A program made the translations under genes and the position numbers. Of a DNA stretch of 64,000 bases, positions 29,786-38,496 are shown piece after piece. Numbering within the stretch: the stretch's first letter is position 1; the number at the start of each line of letters is the position of its first letter. The notes under the pieces were generated by a model, which was not told where the DNA came from, ran no database searches, and saw only the letters and a program-made list of their open reading frames with translations. Source of the DNA: an uncultured delta proteobacterium (GTDB lineage Bacteria; Desulfobacterota; Syntrophia; Syntrophales; UBA2185); NCBI GenBank assembly GCA_963695875.1, contig CAVOID010000009.1:64001-128000 (forward strand). The letters run 5' to 3'.

Positions 29786-30863
29786 ATGAAAGTTATTATA
29801 GCTGGTGGAGGAACGGGAGGGCACCTTTTTCCTGGAATTGCCATCGCGGAGGAATTCTTAAAAAGGGATCAGAATAATAGCATCCTTTTCATAGGAACAG
29901 AGAGAGGGCTGGAAAGAAGAATACTGGGGGATATGGGATTTGATCTTAACACCCTTGATGTGGAAGGAATTAAAGGAAAGGGCCTGATGAAAGCTATTAG
30001 TGCGTCACTGAAGATTCCAGGAAGCCTGGTCCAGTCGTACAGGCTGATCCGTGAGTATTGTCCGGACATCGTGATTGGAGTGGGAGGTTATTCTTCCGGT
30101 CCGGCAGTGATGGCGGCACACTTCATGGGCATCAAAACGGCCATCGCAGAACAAAACGCCCTGCCGGGCATCACCAACAGGATTCTCGGAAAGTTTGTTG
30201 ACAGGATATTTTTGACCTTCTCTGAAACAAAAAAGTGGTTCCCGGGTAATAAGGCTATCACTTCCGGAAACCCTGTCAGAGCAGCTTTTTTTACAGGAGC
30301 ACAGGAATCGAAGAGGAGCGCAGGCAAGTTTACCTTGCTGATTTTCGGTGGGAGCCAGGGCGCCCACAGCATAAATACGGCTGTCCTGAATGCCCTTCCA
30401 TACCTGGAAGGAATTAAAGCTAAATTGAAGATAATCCATCAGACAGGCAGCATAGACCTGAATATCTGTATCTGAGACTTACCAATCGTACAGGATTGAT
30501 GCAGAGGTTCTGCCCTTTATCACGGATATGGCACGAGCCTATAGAAACTCTGATTTACTTATTTGCAGGGCAGGCGCTACATCAATCGCCGAGGTCACTG
30601 CCTGCGGAAAAGCGGCCATCCTGATCCCTTTTCCCTATGCCACGAATGACCACCAGACAAAGAACGCTGAGGCATTGGTAAGAGCTGGGGCAGCCGTATT
30701 AATACGGGAAGCAGACCTCGACGGTAAAAAACTGGCCGAGGTCATCGATCATTTTTACCACCACCCGGAAATGATAAGTGAGATGGAGTTAAAATCGGCC
30801 AGCCTTGGCAATGAAAAGGCAGCCTCTAATATTGTAGATATTTGTATGGAGATGGTTACATAA
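29786..30863 (+). CDS. murG: MurG (frameshift near 30460)
   Basis: GGGTGGH, EQNALPG, GGSQGA, RAGATSIAE, DHQTKNA. Confidence 0.96.
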
Positions 30864-30889
30864 AAAATTTGTAAATTTTCGTAGATTTA

Positions 30890-30936
30890 ATACAAGATAT
30901 AGTATATAGGGACATTTAGTATACAATATACAGTAA
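30890..30936. promoter_or_regulatory. Tandem NrdR-box-like sites upstream of murC
   Basis: ATACAAGATATAGTAT (30890-30905) and ATACAATATACAGTAA (30921-30936), 31 bp apart; consensus acaCwAtATaTwGtgt. Confidence 0.65.
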
Positions 30937-30982
30937 AAGCGATCATAGTAGGAAGTTTTGTCAGGCTGAGTCGGGTGAGGAA

Positions 30983-32383
30983 ATGAAGGACGGCAACAGA
31001 AGAGACACCATGCGCAGAAAGATTAAACGTATCCATTTCGTCGGGATAGGCGGTATCGGCATGAGTGGCATAGCGGAAGTACTTCTCAACCTGGGTTACA
31101 CGATCAGCGGATCAGACCTGAGCCAATCAGATCTCACGCAGAGGCTTGCTTCACTGGGTGCAAGAATTTATACAGGCCACCATGCCTCCAATCTCGGCGA
31201 CACGGATGTGGTCGTTACTTCAACAGCTGTTAAAACCGACAACCCGGAGGTATTGGAAGCACACAGAAGGAACATACCCGTAATACCTCGTGCCGAAATG
31301 CTGGCGGAGCTGCTAAAAATGAAGTTTTCCATCGCCGTATCGGGAAGCCACGGTAAAACAACTACAACCTCAATGGTGGCAACGGTCCTCGCGTCCGGAG
31401 GTCTCGATCCCACCATGGTGATCGGGGGCAAACTGGCAAGCATCGGCAGCAACGCAAAACTGGGAGACGGAGAGGTTATTGTGGCAGAGGCCGATGAAAG
31501 CGACGGCTCATTTCTTAAACTGTCTCCATCCTTAGCCGTGATTACTAATATCGACCTTGAGCACCTTGATCATTACAGGGATATTGAAGACATCAAAGAT
31601 GCTTTCTTACAGTTCGCAAACATCGTTCCCTTTTATGGTTCCACGATAATCTGCCTTGATGATGAAAACGCAAAAGCGATCCTTCCAAACATAAAGAGAA
31701 AAACCGTGACATACGGTCTTCACCCGCCTGCGGACTACAGGGCGAGCGAGATATCATTCTCCGGGCATTCTTCCAGTTTTACCGTCCACTATAAAGAGGA
31801 AGCCCTCGGAACTGTGACACTCAACGTACCGGGCCTTTTCAATGTTTATAATTCCCTGGCAGCAATCGCGGTGGCCCGCGAATTAGATATGGATTTTCCG
31901 GCCATCAAAGAAGGCCTGAAGATTTTTACCGGTGTTCAGCGGAGGTTGGAGGTTAAAGGAAAGGTCAACGGGATTACCATCGTAGATGATTACGGTCATC
32001 ACCCAACCGAGATCAGTGAAACACTGAAAGCGGCAAAACAGGTATGGAAGGAAAAAATTATCGTTGTATTCCAACCCCATCGCTATACCCGGACAAAGGC
32101 CCTTTTTAACGAATTTCTTACAGCTTTCCCCAACGCGGATGAACTGATTGTGACTGACATCTACGCGGCTAGTGAAGCTCCTATAAATGGGATAAATGCC
32201 GAGAGCCTCTGTGAAGGGATACGCGGTCGCGGTCACAACAACGTTATCTATATGCATACCTTTGACGACATTGTAGATCACCTTCTTTCCATTGCAAAAC
32301 CCACGGACGTTATTATCACACAAGGGGCTGGAAATGTATGGAAGATCGGTGAGGAATTCTTGAAAAGGGCCTCACAGAAGTGA
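30983..32383 (+). CDS. murC: MurC (alternative start 31010)
   Basis: [38 protein letters not shown]. Confidence 0.97.
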
Positions 32384-32402
32384 GGGTATCGAGGAAGACC
32401 GT

Positions 32403-33332
32403 ATGCTTAAGGACAGCACGCTCCGCGAAAAGTTAAGAGATATTGTTTCCGGTAAGGTGTTGTTCAATGAACCTATGTCCCGCCACACGTCAATCGGAGT
32501 AGGCGGGACGGCTGATGCATTGGTTTCTCCGGAAACCATGGAAGAATTAAGACAGACTATCACCTGTCTTAGACATTCTAAAATACCCTTCATTCCCGTC
32601 GGCAACGGAACAAATCTAATAGTGCGGGACGGCGGTTACAGAGGTGTTATAATTTCCACTAAAGGTCTCAATAATATAACTTTGACTCAAAGAAGTGCCC
32701 AGCAGGTGTCAATCCAGACGGGAGCAGGCGCTGCGCTTTCCGAGATTGTTCGCCTGACTGAAGAAGAATCTCTGACAGGCATGGAATTTTGTGCCGGTAT
32801 CCCCGGCAGCGTGGGAGGGGCGGTTAAAATGAATGCCGGTGCTTATGGCAGAGAAATTAAGGACATCGTTGAAACAATCGAATTGATGGATAAAAGCGGA
32901 GAAATCCGGGAATTAAAAAAAAACTCTCTAAAATTTGAATACAGGAATCTTGATCTGCCGGAGAGTACAATTATTACGGGTGCGTCGTTCCTCCTGACGA
33001 AGGGGACAAAGGAAAAAATTTGGGGGAGGATAAATGAAATTCTTGGAATGCGGAAGAATAAGCACCCCCTTGAATTTCGTAACTCAGGTTCCATATTCAA
33101 AAACCCCAAGGGAGGTGTCCCGGCCGGTCAAATCATTGATGAAATAGGGCTTAAGGGCAATCAGATAGGCAGTGCAAAAATATCAGAAAAACATGGAAAC
33201 TTCATCGTAAACCTGGGACAGGCAAAAGCAAGCGATATTATTGCGCTGATAAACATGGTTAAGAAAAAGGTTAAGGACGAACGCGGCATTATCCTGGAAG
33301 CAGAGGTTCGAATCATTGGGGAAGAAATATGA
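32403..33332 (+). CDS. murB: MurB
   Basis: GNGTNL, GIPGSVGGAVKMNAG, GSIFKNP, HGNFIVN. Confidence 0.96.
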   Translation: MLKDSTLREKLRDIVSGKVLFNEPMSRHTSIGVGGTADALVSPETMEELRQTITCLRHSKIPFIPVGNGTNLIVRDGGYRGVIISTKGLNNITLTQRSAQQVSIQTGAGAALSEIVRLTEEESLTGMEFCAGIPGSVGGAVKMNAGAYGREIKDIVETIELMDKSGEIRELKKNSLKFEYRNLDLPESTIITGASFLLTKGTKEKIWGRINEILGMRKNKHPLEFRNSGSIFKNPKGGVPAGQIIDEIGLKGNQIGSAKISEKHGNFIVNLGQAKASDIIALINMVKKKVKDERGIILEAEVRIIGEEI

Positions 33333-34171
33333 AAAATCCCTTTAAATCGAAACTGGAAACACGGAAACACAGGCTGAAAAGACGTTCAAAGCAATTTATC
33401 CAAGAGATGTTGCATACAACTCTGTTGATAGGCGTTATTTTGACAATTACATCAGTGATGATCTTTGCTTACAATTTCATAATAACTTCCCCGTACTTTC
33501 AGATTAAAGAAACTGTTGTCCAGGGCTGCAAAGAACTTACGGAAAAAGAAGTCCTTTCACTGGCCGCAATCAGGCCATCTCAAAGTCTCCTGGCAATTAA
33601 TCCGGCTGCAATCGCCCGCAGAATAGAAGCAAATCCATGGGTCAAACAAGTTTTAATAGGGAAGGAGCTTCCCAACCGTTTGATTATAGAGGTACACGAA
33701 AGAACGGCGGTGGCCTTAGTTAAAAGTGATAACGGCATCAGCCTGCTGGATCTCGATGGGGTTACCTTTAAAAAGCTCGAAAACAGTGACGAAGCCGATA
33801 TCCCGGTGCTGAACGGATGTTATTCGGAGAGCAGCGATTCTGTGCTTTTTGCAAAATCCCTTGAACTCCTCCAATATCTTTCAACTGCGAAAGAGTTCCC
33901 GACTATAAAGAACATCTCTGAAATTCACGGTCACGATATATTCGGGCTTTCTCTTTTTACTGACAGCGGGCTGTGCATCCGGTTAGGCTTTGACAGTTAT
34001 GAAAATAAATTTAAACGACTGGCCACCGTTATGGCCGACCTGGAAAGAAGGAACATGAAATTGGGATTTTTGCTTATCGACCTTAACGATCCCGCTAAAA
34101 TTACTGTGCAGAAAAGAAATGTGCTAGGTCCCATGATACCGGCAGGTTCAAAGAAAAAATATAGAACATGA
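33329..34171 (+). CDS. ftsQ: FtsQ/DivIB
   Basis: Single TM, POTRA (NPWV...PNRL), between murB and ftsA. Confidence 0.88.
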   Translation: MKNPFKSKLETRKHRLKRRSKQFIQEMLHTTLLIGVILTITSVMIFAYNFIITSPYFQIKETVVQGCKELTEKEVLSLAAIRPSQSLLAINPAAIARRIEANPWVKQVLIGKELPNRLIIEVHERTAVALVKSDNGISLLDLDGVTFKKLENSDEADIPVLNGCYSESSDSVLFAKSLELLQYLSTAKEFPTIKNISEIHGHDIFGLSLFTDSGLCIRLGFDSYENKFKRLATVMADLERRNMKLGFLLIDLNDPAKITVQKRNVLGPMIPAGSKKKYRT

Positions 34172-34224
34172 CATCCAGGATAACAGCTATGGTCCTAATG
34201 TAAATGAGGAAAGGTAAGTTAAGG

Positions 34225-35451
34225 ATGGCAAAGAAAGCACACGTAATTGTCGGCCTCGATTTAGGCACTACAAAAACCTGTGCCATAGTGGCTGAAATTA
34301 CGGATACGGGCATCGACATTATCGGGATAGGCTCCCATCCTTCGGAAGGTTTGAGAAAGGGCGTTGTAGTTAATATTGAAAGCACGGTAGAGGCAATCAG
34401 AAAGGCCGTTGAAGAAGCTGAACACATGTCAGGCTGTGAAATAAGCTCTGTACATGTGGGCATTGCCGGAGGGCACATAAAAGGACAAAACAGTCTCGGT
34501 ATCGTGGCCGTTAAAGGTCGCGAGGTTGATGAGGAAGATGTGCAGAGGGCGATTGAAGCATCAAAAGCCATCGCAATTCCCCTGGACAGGGAGATTTTGC
34601 ACACCCTGCCGCAGAATTATGTGGTTGACGACCAGAACGGCATCAGAGACCCGATCGGAATGTCCGGCGTTCGGCTTGAAGCTAAGGTACATATCGTAAC
34701 CGGTTCTGTTACGTCCGTACAGAATATTGTGAAATCGGTCAACCGCGTTGGACTGGAAATAGAAGACATTGTCCTTGAACAGCTTGCATCGAGTGAAGCG
34801 GTGCTTAGTGCCGATGAAAAGGATTTGGGAGTGGTCCTCTTGGACATCGGCGGCGGAACTACGGATATCGCTGTTTTTTCTGATGGAAGTATAAAGCATA
34901 CCGCCGTACTGCCGGTAGGGGGCAATTACGTCACAAGTGATATTGCAACCGGATTGAGAACACCTCTTACAGAAGCGGAAAAGATCAAAATAAAGTACGG
35001 ATGTTCCTTCACTTCTATGATACCGAAGGATGAGATCATAGAGGTTCCCAGTGTGGGCGGACGAGAACCGAGAGAAGTTACCCGTCAGATTCTCGGCAGG
35101 ATTATTGAGCCTCGGACCGAGGAGATCCTGAATTTGGCTTACAAGGAAATTATTAAATCAGGTTACGAAGACATTCTTGCTGCCGGTGTAGTTTTAACCG
35201 GAGGGACCTCCATCATGGAAGGAATCACAGAGTTGGCAGAGCACGTTTTTAATATGCCTGTAAGAAGGGGCTGTCCGACAGGAGTAGGAGGGTTGACAGA
35301 TGTAGTGAACTCTCCCATGTACGCAACAGGTGTGGGACTTGTTATTTATGGAAGTAAAACTCTATCCAAAGATACCCTGAGAAAGGCTGAAACAAATATA
35401 TTCAGCAAAACAACAAATAAAATTAAAAAATGGTTTTTAGAATTCTTTTAA
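34225..35451 (+). CDS. ftsA: FtsA (alternative start 34204)
   Basis: GLDLGT, DIGGGTT, VLTGG, YATGVGL. Confidence 0.97.
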   Translation: MAKKAHVIVGLDLGTTKTCAIVAEITDTGIDIIGIGSHPSEGLRKGVVVNIESTVEAIRKAVEEAEHMSGCEISSVHVGIAGGHIKGQNSLGIVAVKGREVDEEDVQRAIEASKAIAIPLDREILHTLPQNYVVDDQNGIRDPIGMSGVRLEAKVHIVTGSVTSVQNIVKSVNRVGLEIEDIVLEQLASSEAVLSADEKDLGVVLLDIGGGTTDIAVFSDGSIKHTAVLPVGGNYVTSDIATGLRTPLTEAEKIKIKYGCSFTSMIPKDEIIEVPSVGGREPREVTRQILGRIIEPRTEEILNLAYKEIIKSGYEDILAAGVVLTGGTSIMEGITELAEHVFNMPVRRGCPTGVGGLTDVVNSPMYATGVGLVIYGSKTLSKDTLRKAETNIFSKTTNKIKKWFLEFF

Positions 35452-35466
35452 AGAGGAGGTAGGGTC

Positions 35467-36615
35467 ATGTTTCAATTGATGGAGCCAGATACAATGAATT
35501 CGGCGAAGATTAAGGTAATCGGCATAGGAGGTGCGGGAGGCAATGCAGTGAACACCATGATTGCATGCAGCCTTAAAGGTGTCGACTTCATCGCGGCAAA
35601 TACAGACGCCCAAGCCTTAGGAGCATCCATTTCGCCCATCAAGATTCAGATCGGCGCTGAGGTCACCAAGGGACTAGGAGCCGGTTCAGATCCTGACGTA
35701 GGAAGAAGGTCGGCCATTGAAACAAAAGATCTATTAAGGGAGACCCTCGACAGGGCGGATATGGTCTTTATCACCGCCGGCCTGGGTGGCGGTACGGGTA
35801 CCGGTGGCGCACCCATAGTGGCAGAAATCGCCAAAGAACTCGGAATCCTCACCGTTGCCGTTGTTACAAAACCCTTCCTCTTTGAAGGCAAAAAAAGGAA
35901 TACGCAGGCGGAAGAAGGCATTACAGAATTGAGAAAGATTGTGGATACCCTCATCGTTGTTCCCAACCAAAGACTTCTCAGCCTGGGGGGGAAAAATCTT
36001 TCACTTCTGGAAGCCTTCAAGAAAGCGGATGATATTTTGTACCATGCTGTAAAGGGAATCTCTGATCTAATCATGATTCCCGGTCTGATCAACCTCGACT
36101 TCGCCGATGTAAAAACTATCATGTCTGAGATGGGAATGGCGCTAATGGGAACTGGAATTGCGAGAGGTGATAACAGGGCAGTGGAAGCCGCCCAGAAGGC
36201 AATATCTTCTCCGCTGCTTGAAGACAATACCATCCAGGGTGCTCACGGCATCCTTCTTAATATCACAGGAGGTGCCGACATGACTCTTTTTGAAATCAAT
36301 GAGGCATCATCTTTAATTCAGTCGGAAGCCCATGAGGATGCGAATATAATCTTCGGAACTGTCGTAGATGAGAATATGGGAGACGAAATACGTATCACCG
36401 TCATAGCAACGGGCTTCGAGGCAGAAAAACATAAGCCGGTGATGAAAAATGTCTCGCGCATGGGATCTCATAAAAGAGAGGATCTCTCCATGCCCGCCTA
36501 TCTGAGGCATGAAAAACCCATTGAGAATGTCAACGTGGTCAAAATGGGAATAGTCGATGACATAGATCATCTCGATCTTGAGATACCGACATTTCTGAGA
36601 AGACAGGCAGATTGA
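35467..36615 (+). CDS. ftsZ: FtsZ
   Basis: GGGTGTG tubulin signature; C-terminal [12 protein letters not shown]. Confidence 0.99.
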
Positions 36616-36791: not shown

Positions 36792-38496
36792 ATGTCCTGG
36801 AAACTTGAAAGAAAATATAATGATTTCTTAGCTGATGAAGACAGGACATCAGAAAAAGATCTGGGGAGAACTGCTCACAGTATGTCTTGCTTACCCGAGT
36901 TACTATCGAACAGGGATGTCTAACCTTGGGCTGCATACCATTTATTCATTGATAAACCATCAATCATCGTATCTTTGCGAACGAGCCTTTCTTCCCGAAC
37001 CCGGGGATGAAGCTTTATTCACTCTGGGATCAATCCCCCTCTTCAGCCTGGAGTCACAGAAGCCCCTCACCGAATTCGACATCATCGCTTTCTCAATCCC
37101 CTTTGAAAACGATTATCCCAACATTTTGAAAATGTTGACCATGGCGGGGATTGCCCTTTCTGCCCGGGAGAGAAGGGAAACGGAGCCATTAATCATCGGC
37201 GGCGGCGTTTCAGCAACCCTGAATCCGGAACCGCTGGCGGATTTTTTTGACCTTTTTTTACTGGGAGAGGGAGAAGAAGTTCTACCGGAATTTCTCACTC
37301 TCTTCGAAGATCACCGCCGACTCGGCCTCAACCGGAGTGAACTCCTCTTTCGCGTTCAGAAAGAGACAGAGGGAGCTTACGTTCCAAAGTATTATAAGGT
37401 AAATTACAAGGCAGACCATCTCATAGAAAATATTGAACCCGTAGATGCCTCATTCCCCGAAAAGATAAAGACAAGGCATATCTCAGACATCAACACCTTC
37501 ACGACCGATCAATGTATCAGCGCCCACATCGCGGAATTCAAGGAAGTATTTTTAACTGAAATAAGCCGCGGATGTCAGCGCGGATGCCGCTTTTGCGCGG
37601 CAGGATTCTTATATCGACCCGCAAGATTCAGAAACTTGGCGACACTCGAGTCATCATTTAACCGGGGAATAGAGGGGCAAAAAAAGATCGGGCTCCTTGG
37701 CACGGCGGTTTCCGATCATCCGGACCTGCATGCCCTTTGCCGTTATATTATTAATCATAAGGGTAATGTGGCTATCGGCTCGTTCAGACTGGATCGACTT
37801 GACAGCGAATTGGTTTCCCTGCTTCAAGAATTGCATGTCGAGACTTTGTCTCTGGCGCCGGAGGCAGGCAGCCAGCGTCTAAGAAATGTCATCCACAAGG
37901 GTATAACAGATGAAGACATCATGAACGCTGTTGGATTGCTCATTAAACATGGAATTGTCAATATCAGGCTTTATTTCATGGTCGGCCTGCCTACCGAAAC
38001 GGATGGAGATATTGAGGCCATCATTGATCTGATCAAAAAGATAAAACATCATGCCATGAAATTATCGGCGGGAAAAAGAAGGTTCAAAAGAATTACCCTT
38101 AGCATCAATCAGTTCATCCCCAAACCCGCTACACCTTTTCAGTGGCATCCCCTGGAAGAAATTAATATAGTAAGAAAGAAGCTGAGAAAAATTGATAGTA
38201 CCCTGCGCAAGGAACCGTCCGTGAAGGTTATTCACGATCTCCCGAAATGGAACTACATACAGGCGCTGTTTTCCCTCGGTGACAGAAAGGTCAGCGAGAT
38301 ACTTCTCTCAGCTCATAATAATAACGGCAACTGGCCGAAGGCTTTTAAAGAAGTAAACGTGAATCCGGACTTCTACGTCTATCGTTACAAGAATACTGAT
38401 GAGATACTGCCGTGGGACTTTATTGACCACGGAATCAGCAAACAGTACCTCATTGCACAGTACAAGAAAGCTATGGAAAACGGTACGCACCTGTAA
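36792..38496 (+). CDS. Radical SAM protein with N-terminal B12-binding-like domain (frameshift near 36840)
   Basis: YPSYYRTGMSNLG, CERAFLP, NPEPLADF, GCQRGCRFC, APEAGSQRLR, LPWDFID; ATG 36792 (MSWKLERKY...) joins the ORF by one indel. Confidence 0.88.

Follow-up and report, generated by a model that had tools for sequence, protein, structure and literature searches.

A conserved pair of NrdR-type boxes in the murG-murC gap of a Syntrophales division and cell wall gene cluster

Gene context of the murG-murC gap

The window, by which we mean the whole 64-kb stretch of DNA that was analyzed (G000:C9:64001-128000), belongs to a 2.86-Mb MAG (G000) of an uncultured, oxygen-avoiding member of the Syntrophales that is assembled in 16 contigs and is 82.6% complete. 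NCBIfam matches gave the gene order murD, ftsW, murG, murC, murB, ftsQ, ftsA and ftsZ in the window, and a B12-binding radical-SAM gene follows ftsZ (Table 1). As the sequence-only reading had stated, an otherwise tightly packed operon is interrupted by a long, AT-rich gap: murG and murC lie 119 bp apart, as against -4 to 32 bp at the remaining junctions from ftsW to ftsZ, and the first 73 nt of the gap have a GC content of 20.5% versus 46% in the dcw genes. The order from murG through the gap, murC, murB, ftsQ, ftsA and ftsZ to the radical-SAM gene was the same in all seven of the box-bearing genomes that were sampled. In Syntrophales that lack the boxes the gap was mostly 26-71 bp long, and the longer gaps among them measured 351 bp (L034), 138 bp (L036) and 107 bp (L035). 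The terminator scan called no terminator between murG and murC, nor past ftsZ. The murG gene itself changes frame near 30465-30475, and this break is probably an assembly error and not the mark of a pseudogene, because nrdR and nrdD of the same genome carry the same kind of break.

Table 1. Features of the murG-murC region (window coordinates) and paired sites elsewhere in G000 (genome coordinates)
Feature	Position	Strand	Description
murG	29786..30863	+	TIGR01133 on both pieces; two frames, 29786-30475 and 30528-30863
murG-murC gap	30864..30982	+	119 bp, 31% GC
Upstream block	30876..30889	+	Conserved; T-tract and -35-like TAGATT (30882-30887)
NrdR-type box 1	30890..30905	.	ATACAAGATATAGTAT, 16 bp
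Candidate -10 region	30903..30910	+	TATATA (30903-30908) or TATAGG (30905-30910)
Linker	30906..30920	.	15 bp between the boxes; fixed length, variable sequence
NrdR-type box 2	30921..30936	.	ATACAATATACAGTAA, 16 bp
Leader	30937..30982	+	Variable; ribosome-binding site GGTGAGG (30974-30980)
Presumed regulated unit murC-murB-ftsQ-ftsA-ftsZ	30983..36615	+	NCBIfam matches; junctions -4 to 32 bp
murC	30983-32383	+	NCBIfam
murB	32403-33332	+	NCBIfam
ftsQ	33329-34171	+	NCBIfam
ftsA	34204-35451	+	NCBIfam
ftsZ	35467-36615	+	NCBIfam
B12-binding radical-SAM gene	36835-38496		TIGR03960; 219-bp gap after ftsZ
Deacetylase operator (putative)	G000:C4:95848-95895 (L177)		Strong pair, 32 bp; overlaps TTGACA-17-TATTAG
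Small-ORF operator (putative)	G000:C5:114968-115257 (L231, L232)		Pair, 31 bp
PilZ operator (putative)	G000:C11:268602-268648 (L147)		Precedes a PilZ-domain protein
Sugar-transferase operator (putative)	G000:C1:32149-32195 (L207)		Precedes a PF02397 sugar transferase

The paired boxes and their conservation

The gap holds two NrdR-type boxes whose sequences, positions and start-to-start distance of 31 bp are exactly those of the sequence-only reading. Both are palindromes with C and G nine bases apart. Measured against the Rodionov-Gelfand consensus quoted in that reading, which is reportedly acaCwAtATaTwGtgt, box 1 matched at 13 and box 2 at 12 of the 16 positions; the left half-site of box 2 is perfect and its right half is mismatched at position 11. 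The loose tandem pattern CWANATANNG-N21-CWANATANNG had a single match in the window, at the murG-murC gap, and matched in none of 100 dinucleotide shuffles of the window. The genes 3' of the pair (murC, murB, ftsQ, ftsA and ftsZ) are not an RNR operon, which does not bear on the question of binding.

For comparison, murC loci were fetched from 30 relatives, with the family genome G015 giving a split hit and no locus. All 21 loci from the same family, which span seven genera and MurC identities down to 80%, had the pair at its spacing of 31-32 bp, so the retention of both boxes and their spacing in the murG-murC gap of relatives, which the sequence-only reading had proposed checking, was very strong. 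In other families of the order the pair was found at one of nine loci (G028). Among 80 further Syntrophales loci, two of which had too little upstream DNA to judge, 20 carried the pair, with consensus scores of at least 23 in the carriers and at most 19 in the others. The pair is also present in two Syntrophales lineages outside the family. Most relatives have the boxes 31 bp apart, the spacing being 32 bp in L026, L027 and L093. The boxes of G028 and its relatives, ACACCAGATATGGTAT and ATACAATATAAAGTGT, are unlike those of the window and closer to the general consensus quoted above. In a quick MurC tree of 78 rows, which excludes three loci with fewer than 400 translated amino acids, the family is a clade whose 18 rows all have boxes, and the two other box-bearing lineages fall in a polytomy. 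Related genomes are not independent, and what the family shares may be a single module inherited from its ancestor.

The footprint was taken from an alignment of 24 unique sequences. Ten of the 16 columns of box 1 were invariant (mean entropy 0.20) and seven of the 16 columns of box 2 (0.39), compared with two of 15 in the linker (1.05), none of 46 in the leader, which also contains indels (1.65), and three of 74 in the last 74 nt of murG (1.07). Five of the 14 columns of the upstream block were invariant as well. Within the boxes, C4, A6, A8, T9 and G13 were invariant in both boxes in 24 of 24 sequences and T11 was invariant in box 1; all six of these positions are likewise invariant in the nrdD matrix described below. 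At position 11, box 2 has C or A and never T in all relatives, in contrast to the nrdD boxes, which always have T there, so this box may be a weak binding site.

NrdR, ribonucleotide reductase and the nrdD operator of the host

NrdR, a repressor with a zinc ribbon and an ATP cone, is a sensor of dATP and ATP. The host does encode it, a point on which the sequence-only reading had made its proposal depend: G000 has a single copy of nrdR (TIGR00244, 160.5 bits, C4:156801-157242), which is frameshifted in the assembly by a one-base frame break at C4:157150-157163, and nrdR was identified as a single stop-free match in 38 of 40 relatives, the two relatives that miss it being genomes that are 82% and 85% complete. 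The nrdD gene also changes frame once in the assembly, at G000:C8:140300-140350. The breaks in nrdR, nrdD and murG are most likely assembly indels rather than signs of pseudogenes, because all three are essential-type genes and nrdR is unbroken in those 38 relatives. A profile search found NrdR and NrdD, and no other ATP-cone protein, in G000. Class III nrdD is the only RNR that was found, and no large subunit of a class I or class II RNR was detected in this 82.6% complete genome. The translated N-terminus of the host NrdR carries D15 and R17, which the available text of PMC9110341 describes as the box-reading residues of Streptomyces coelicolor NrdR.

The nrdD promoter of G000 contains two canonical boxes, TATCAATATATAGTAG and CCCCAATATGTTGGGT, 31 bp apart, with TATCAATATATAGTAG occupying the spacer of TTGATT-17-TATCAT. 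The resulting layout of -35, box, -10, box was seen in the nrdD promoters of 28 of 30 relatives, and of the two loci outside the 28 one is cut by a contig end and one is ambiguous in register.

A candidate promoter in the gap

The conservation of the flanks is limited to the side upstream of box 1, which fits a promoter on the plus strand. There, T30882, G30884 and A30885 are invariant and the hexamer TAGATT is conserved as TRGATT in relatives; by analogy with TTGATT-17-TATCAT at nrdD, we read TAGATT as a putative -35 element. Immediately after box 1 a TATA is conserved, in which T30905, A30906 and T30907 are invariant. A 17-bp spacer from TAGATT leads to TATAGG as the -10; at the small-ORF promoter TATACT starts with the final three bases of the box, and this analogy would instead point to TATATA. 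Under either choice the arrangement is that of nrdD, box 1 occupying the spacer and box 2 lying over the region where transcription would be expected to start. The -10-like hexamers named in the sequence-only reading do exist, TATAGT at 30898-30903 and TACAAT at 30922-30927, but they are not the best-conserved candidates, and TACAAT is lost in two genera (g2 and g5).

A scan with the sigma-70 consensus called no promoter in the gap and placed its only calls within the 3' end of murG. TAGATT fits the -35 consensus at three of six positions and the candidate -10 is without the final T. The internal promoter in the murG-murC gap is accordingly a putative one. An RNA element was also considered for the gap and rejected: no Rfam match was obtained there at E values up to 1 (a spurious lncRNA match fell outside the gap), and the fold was no better than that of shuffled sequences (z +0.73).

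Matrix scoring of the genome

A matrix restricted to nrdD was built from 30 unique boxes in the nrdD promoters of 28 relatives. The likeness of the murC-gap boxes to nrd boxes, which the sequence-only reading had suggested scoring in this way, came out as weak to moderate, in that box 1 scored 9.7 bits and box 2 scored 5.0 bits, and all 30 training boxes scored higher than either (12-24 bits). At a loose threshold and spacings of 18-45, the murC-gap pair ranked eighth of ten pairs genome-wide with this matrix. Five of the ten lie at 31-32 bp: one at nrdD, one in the murC gap and three, all strong, at other places. Genome-wide, over 61 other spacings, three pairs that match the murC pair in quality were found, or about 0.05 per spacing.

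The reciprocal matrix was derived from 17 murC-box sites in relatives, those of G000 being excluded, and was scanned over G000. It ranked the murC pair first, followed by the pair at C5:114968 and then by those at C4:95848 and C1:32149; the C5:114968 pair had been missed by the nrdD matrix and the latter two were found by both matrices. With a matrix pooled from all of the conserved operators, six pairs in G000 scored at least 30, all of them at 31-32 bp, and the rest scored at most 25 at scattered spacings; this matrix contains the murC boxes and is circular for the murC pair.

Other paired sites and specificity across genomes

G000 has six paired sites in total. Downstream of the pair at C4:95848 lie a PF04748 divergent polysaccharide deacetylase, which bears a Tat-like signal, and then an HDOD/HD gene; this pair was kept in eight of eight orthologous loci (L177-L184), one of them from another family. 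The pair at C5:114968 precedes an ORF of 61 residues with a C-terminal membrane helix that is convergent with a neighbor read as mreB-like from its N-terminal translation alone. In the orthologous loci, which include L233-L236, it was found in four of four, those of G001, G009 and G012 among them, and G031 has a 30-bp variant. Box 2 of this pair shares the C at position 11 with box 2 of murC. G004 and G009 have similar small membrane ORFs that also carry operators (L253, L254). The PilZ and sugar-transferase pairs are the two highest-scoring outside nrdD. As conserved members of a regulon both were rejected: among 30 loci the PilZ pair was present in G000 and as a degraded copy in G001 only, and among 24 loci the sugar-transferase pair was present in G000 and G002 only, which makes the two pairs specific to a species or genus. 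Judged from the distribution of sites, nrdD and murC form the family-wide core of the predicted regulon, and its periphery varies.

To gauge specificity, the loose tandem pattern was run over ten whole genomes with a gap of 21 or 22 bases, and a reversed-pattern control gave no matches in any of the ten. The nrdD promoter and the murC gap were the only two sites in the closed chromosome of G007 and in G003. Five sites each were returned for G004 and G009, which have in common sites at nrdD, the murC gap, a deacetylase gene and a small ORF; the fifth is a coding site in G004 and a further promoter-like site in G009. A single site was found in G035 and in G027, in both cases at nrdD and in G027 reported on both strands. 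There were two in G033, one at nrdD and one within a coding frame, and none in G028, whose own boxes break the strict pattern, or in G030 and G025. The second match of G033 is a tandem match in its dcw cluster (L259:3255-3295, corresponding to G033:C1:19255-19295) that lies inside a coding frame of 662 aa, and it is probably due to chance. The frame around this oddly placed match was read as ftsI from its translation, and G033 is a genome without the murC-gap operator.

Discussion

The box pair in the murG-murC gap is real and far from chance. A chance resemblance without function is very unlikely: about 0.05-0.15 pairs this good would be expected per genome at 30-32 bp, which is small and yet not negligible post hoc, but the boxes are clearly better conserved than the coding sequence next to them in seven genera and two further lineages, and no shuffle of the window produced a match. 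What the pair resembles is the tandem operator known from RNR genes, such as nrdAB, nrdHIEF and nrdDG of Escherichia coli, nrdRJ and nrdAB of S. coelicolor, and nrdAB, nrdJ and nrdDG of Pseudomonas aeruginosa. Like these, and like the nrdD promoter of G000, which is itself an operator of this kind, the murC gap has two 16-bp palindromic boxes 31 bp, or about three helical turns, apart. It is unlike them in its target, murC-murB-ftsQ-ftsA-ftsZ, in the mismatch at position 11 of box 2 and in its weak promoter hexamers. RNR operators overlap the promoter and transcription start and have conserved G-C pairs at positions 4 and 13 of the box, according to the available text of PMC9110341 and 10.1101/2025.03.28.645925; inverting these two pairs costs approximately 50-fold in binding, as given in that of PMC9110341.

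We consider it probable, on the strength of the motif, its spacing and its conservation, that the boxes form an operator by which NrdR controls an internal promoter serving murC-murB-ftsQ-ftsA-ftsZ, while noting that we infer NrdR binding, the promoter and the sign of regulation at the murC gap. The sequence-only reading had arrived at the same NrdR-controlled internal promoter, and it is supported in silico, all of the in-silico tests that it proposed coming out in its favor, one of them weakly. An unexceptional AT-rich promoter inside the dcw cluster, or another regulator's site, that merely resembles NrdR boxes would account for the poor scores on the nrdD-only matrix, for the TATA-like words that are common to AT-rich promoters, and for outer positions (ATAC...GTAT) that differ from those of the nrdD boxes of the family (TATC..., CCCC...GGGT). 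Such a site seems unlikely to us, since invariance falls on the positions of the NrdR motif and not on those of promoter hexamers, the spacing of 31-32 bp is held while the sequence of the linker changes, and in two genomes the sole other tandem match is the nrdD promoter; moreover, the outer A-A-C...G-T-T positions fit the general consensus better than do the nrdD boxes of the family.

A different possibility is that NrdR does bind here but in another role, whether as a roadblock to read-through from murG, as a buffer that titrates free NrdR, or as an activator site. Speaking for such a role are the fact that the sigma-70 consensus scan called no canonical promoter in the gap, the systematic imperfection of box 2, the lack of a called terminator between murG and murC, by which read-through would be available to block, and the positive action at topA of P. 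aeruginosa described in the available text of PMC4409342. Set against these points, the position of the conserved T-tract and -35-like block relative to box 1 is nearly that seen at nrdD and three further pairs of G000, and a site acting purely as a roadblock or decoy would have no need of such a block, so that we give this alternative a low probability too.

If the boxes are an operator on an internal promoter, that promoter would add transcription of murC-murB-ftsQ-ftsA-ftsZ to the read-through from the upstream dcw genes, which would supply a basal level. Following what the available text of PMC9110341 reports, namely that NrdR loaded with ATP only forms an oligomer unable to bind DNA and that dATP rising upon falling DNA synthesis gives a dATP/ATP tetramer which sits on two boxes about three turns apart and blocks RNA polymerase, we envisage that when DNA synthesis slows and dATP rises the NrdR tetramer carrying dATP/ATP would occupy both boxes, three helical turns apart. 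The bound tetramer would cover the spacer and -10 together with the start region and would shut the promoter at the same time as that of nrdD. Conversely, ATP-only NrdR would leave the DNA, and the expression of RNR and of the late genes for wall and division would increase in concert at times of dNTP demand. We speculate that the fixed mismatch in box 2 lowers affinity and that the murC promoter would therefore respond at a different threshold.

Transcriptional control within dcw clusters is itself familiar. Internal promoters feed late division genes, as with the ftsQ, ftsA and ftsZ promoters of E. coli, and the supply of FtsZ is tied to replication or DNA damage through DnaA, CtrA and GcrA in Caulobacter and through the SOS inhibitors SulA and YneA. 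The arrangement proposed here would be like these known controls in providing an extra promoter for late division genes and in coupling division to the state of the chromosome; to our knowledge, none of them uses NrdR or the dATP/ATP ratio as a signal. MraZ, which is encoded at the head of dcw clusters and acts at the first promoter through direct G-rich repeats, is likewise a transcription factor on the dcw cluster, but the murC-gap site, unlike that of MraZ, is internal, palindromic and AT-rich and has the NrdR motif.

Sites of NrdR type outside RNR operons have been described at topA in Pseudomonas and dnaA in Shewanella, and the murC-gap site is like these in its location. As set out in the available text of PMC4409342, every gene described before that paper as regulated by NrdR encoded an RNR, and topA, with a single box, was then added as a target. 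The available text of 10.1101/2025.03.28.645925 describes single boxes at non-RNR genes such as dnaA and topA, and in E. coli and P. aeruginosa it places pairs at integer helical turns only at RNR operons, with no non-RNR gene having more than one box. The murC gap departs from the single-box cases in having a full conserved pair at a non-RNR operon. A full-text literature search, with subscription-only papers (including a 2005 Trends in Genetics paper) and RegPrecise outside its scope, found no description of NrdR sites in a dcw cluster, and in its available text PMC4898720 has FtsZ only in an interaction-network list. The remark in the sequence-only reading that no link between NrdR and division was known to it agrees with this search and with the available text of PMC4409342 and 10.1101/2025.03.28.645925.

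A broader and more tentative proposal, which we regard as possible without holding it to be the likelier case, is that NrdR in this family is no longer RNR-specific and has become a small cell-cycle regulator reading the dATP/ATP balance, which would co-control nrdD, murC-murB-ftsQAZ, the PF04748 deacetylase, a secreted protein, and at least one small membrane protein, with the imperfection of box 2 tuning the murC promoter to an earlier release than nrdD. If this were true, small membrane proteins under NrdR, one of them beside mreB, might modulate division or elongation.

NrdR has been described as an RNR-specific repressor, and a full pair of its boxes in a division and cell wall cluster departs from that description. 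NrdR regulons can evidently expand, with six pairs in G000, which bears both on regulon prediction and on proposals to target NrdR. How division is matched to replication in bacteria without the known checkpoint systems becomes, at this locus, a question that can be tested with 60 bp of DNA and one small protein. If the operator reading is correct, there would be a direct transcriptional wire from the status of DNA precursors to FtsZ, FtsA, FtsQ and early peptidoglycan synthesis, and from the evidence of their genomes these bacteria probably link their output of division proteins to how DNA synthesis is proceeding.
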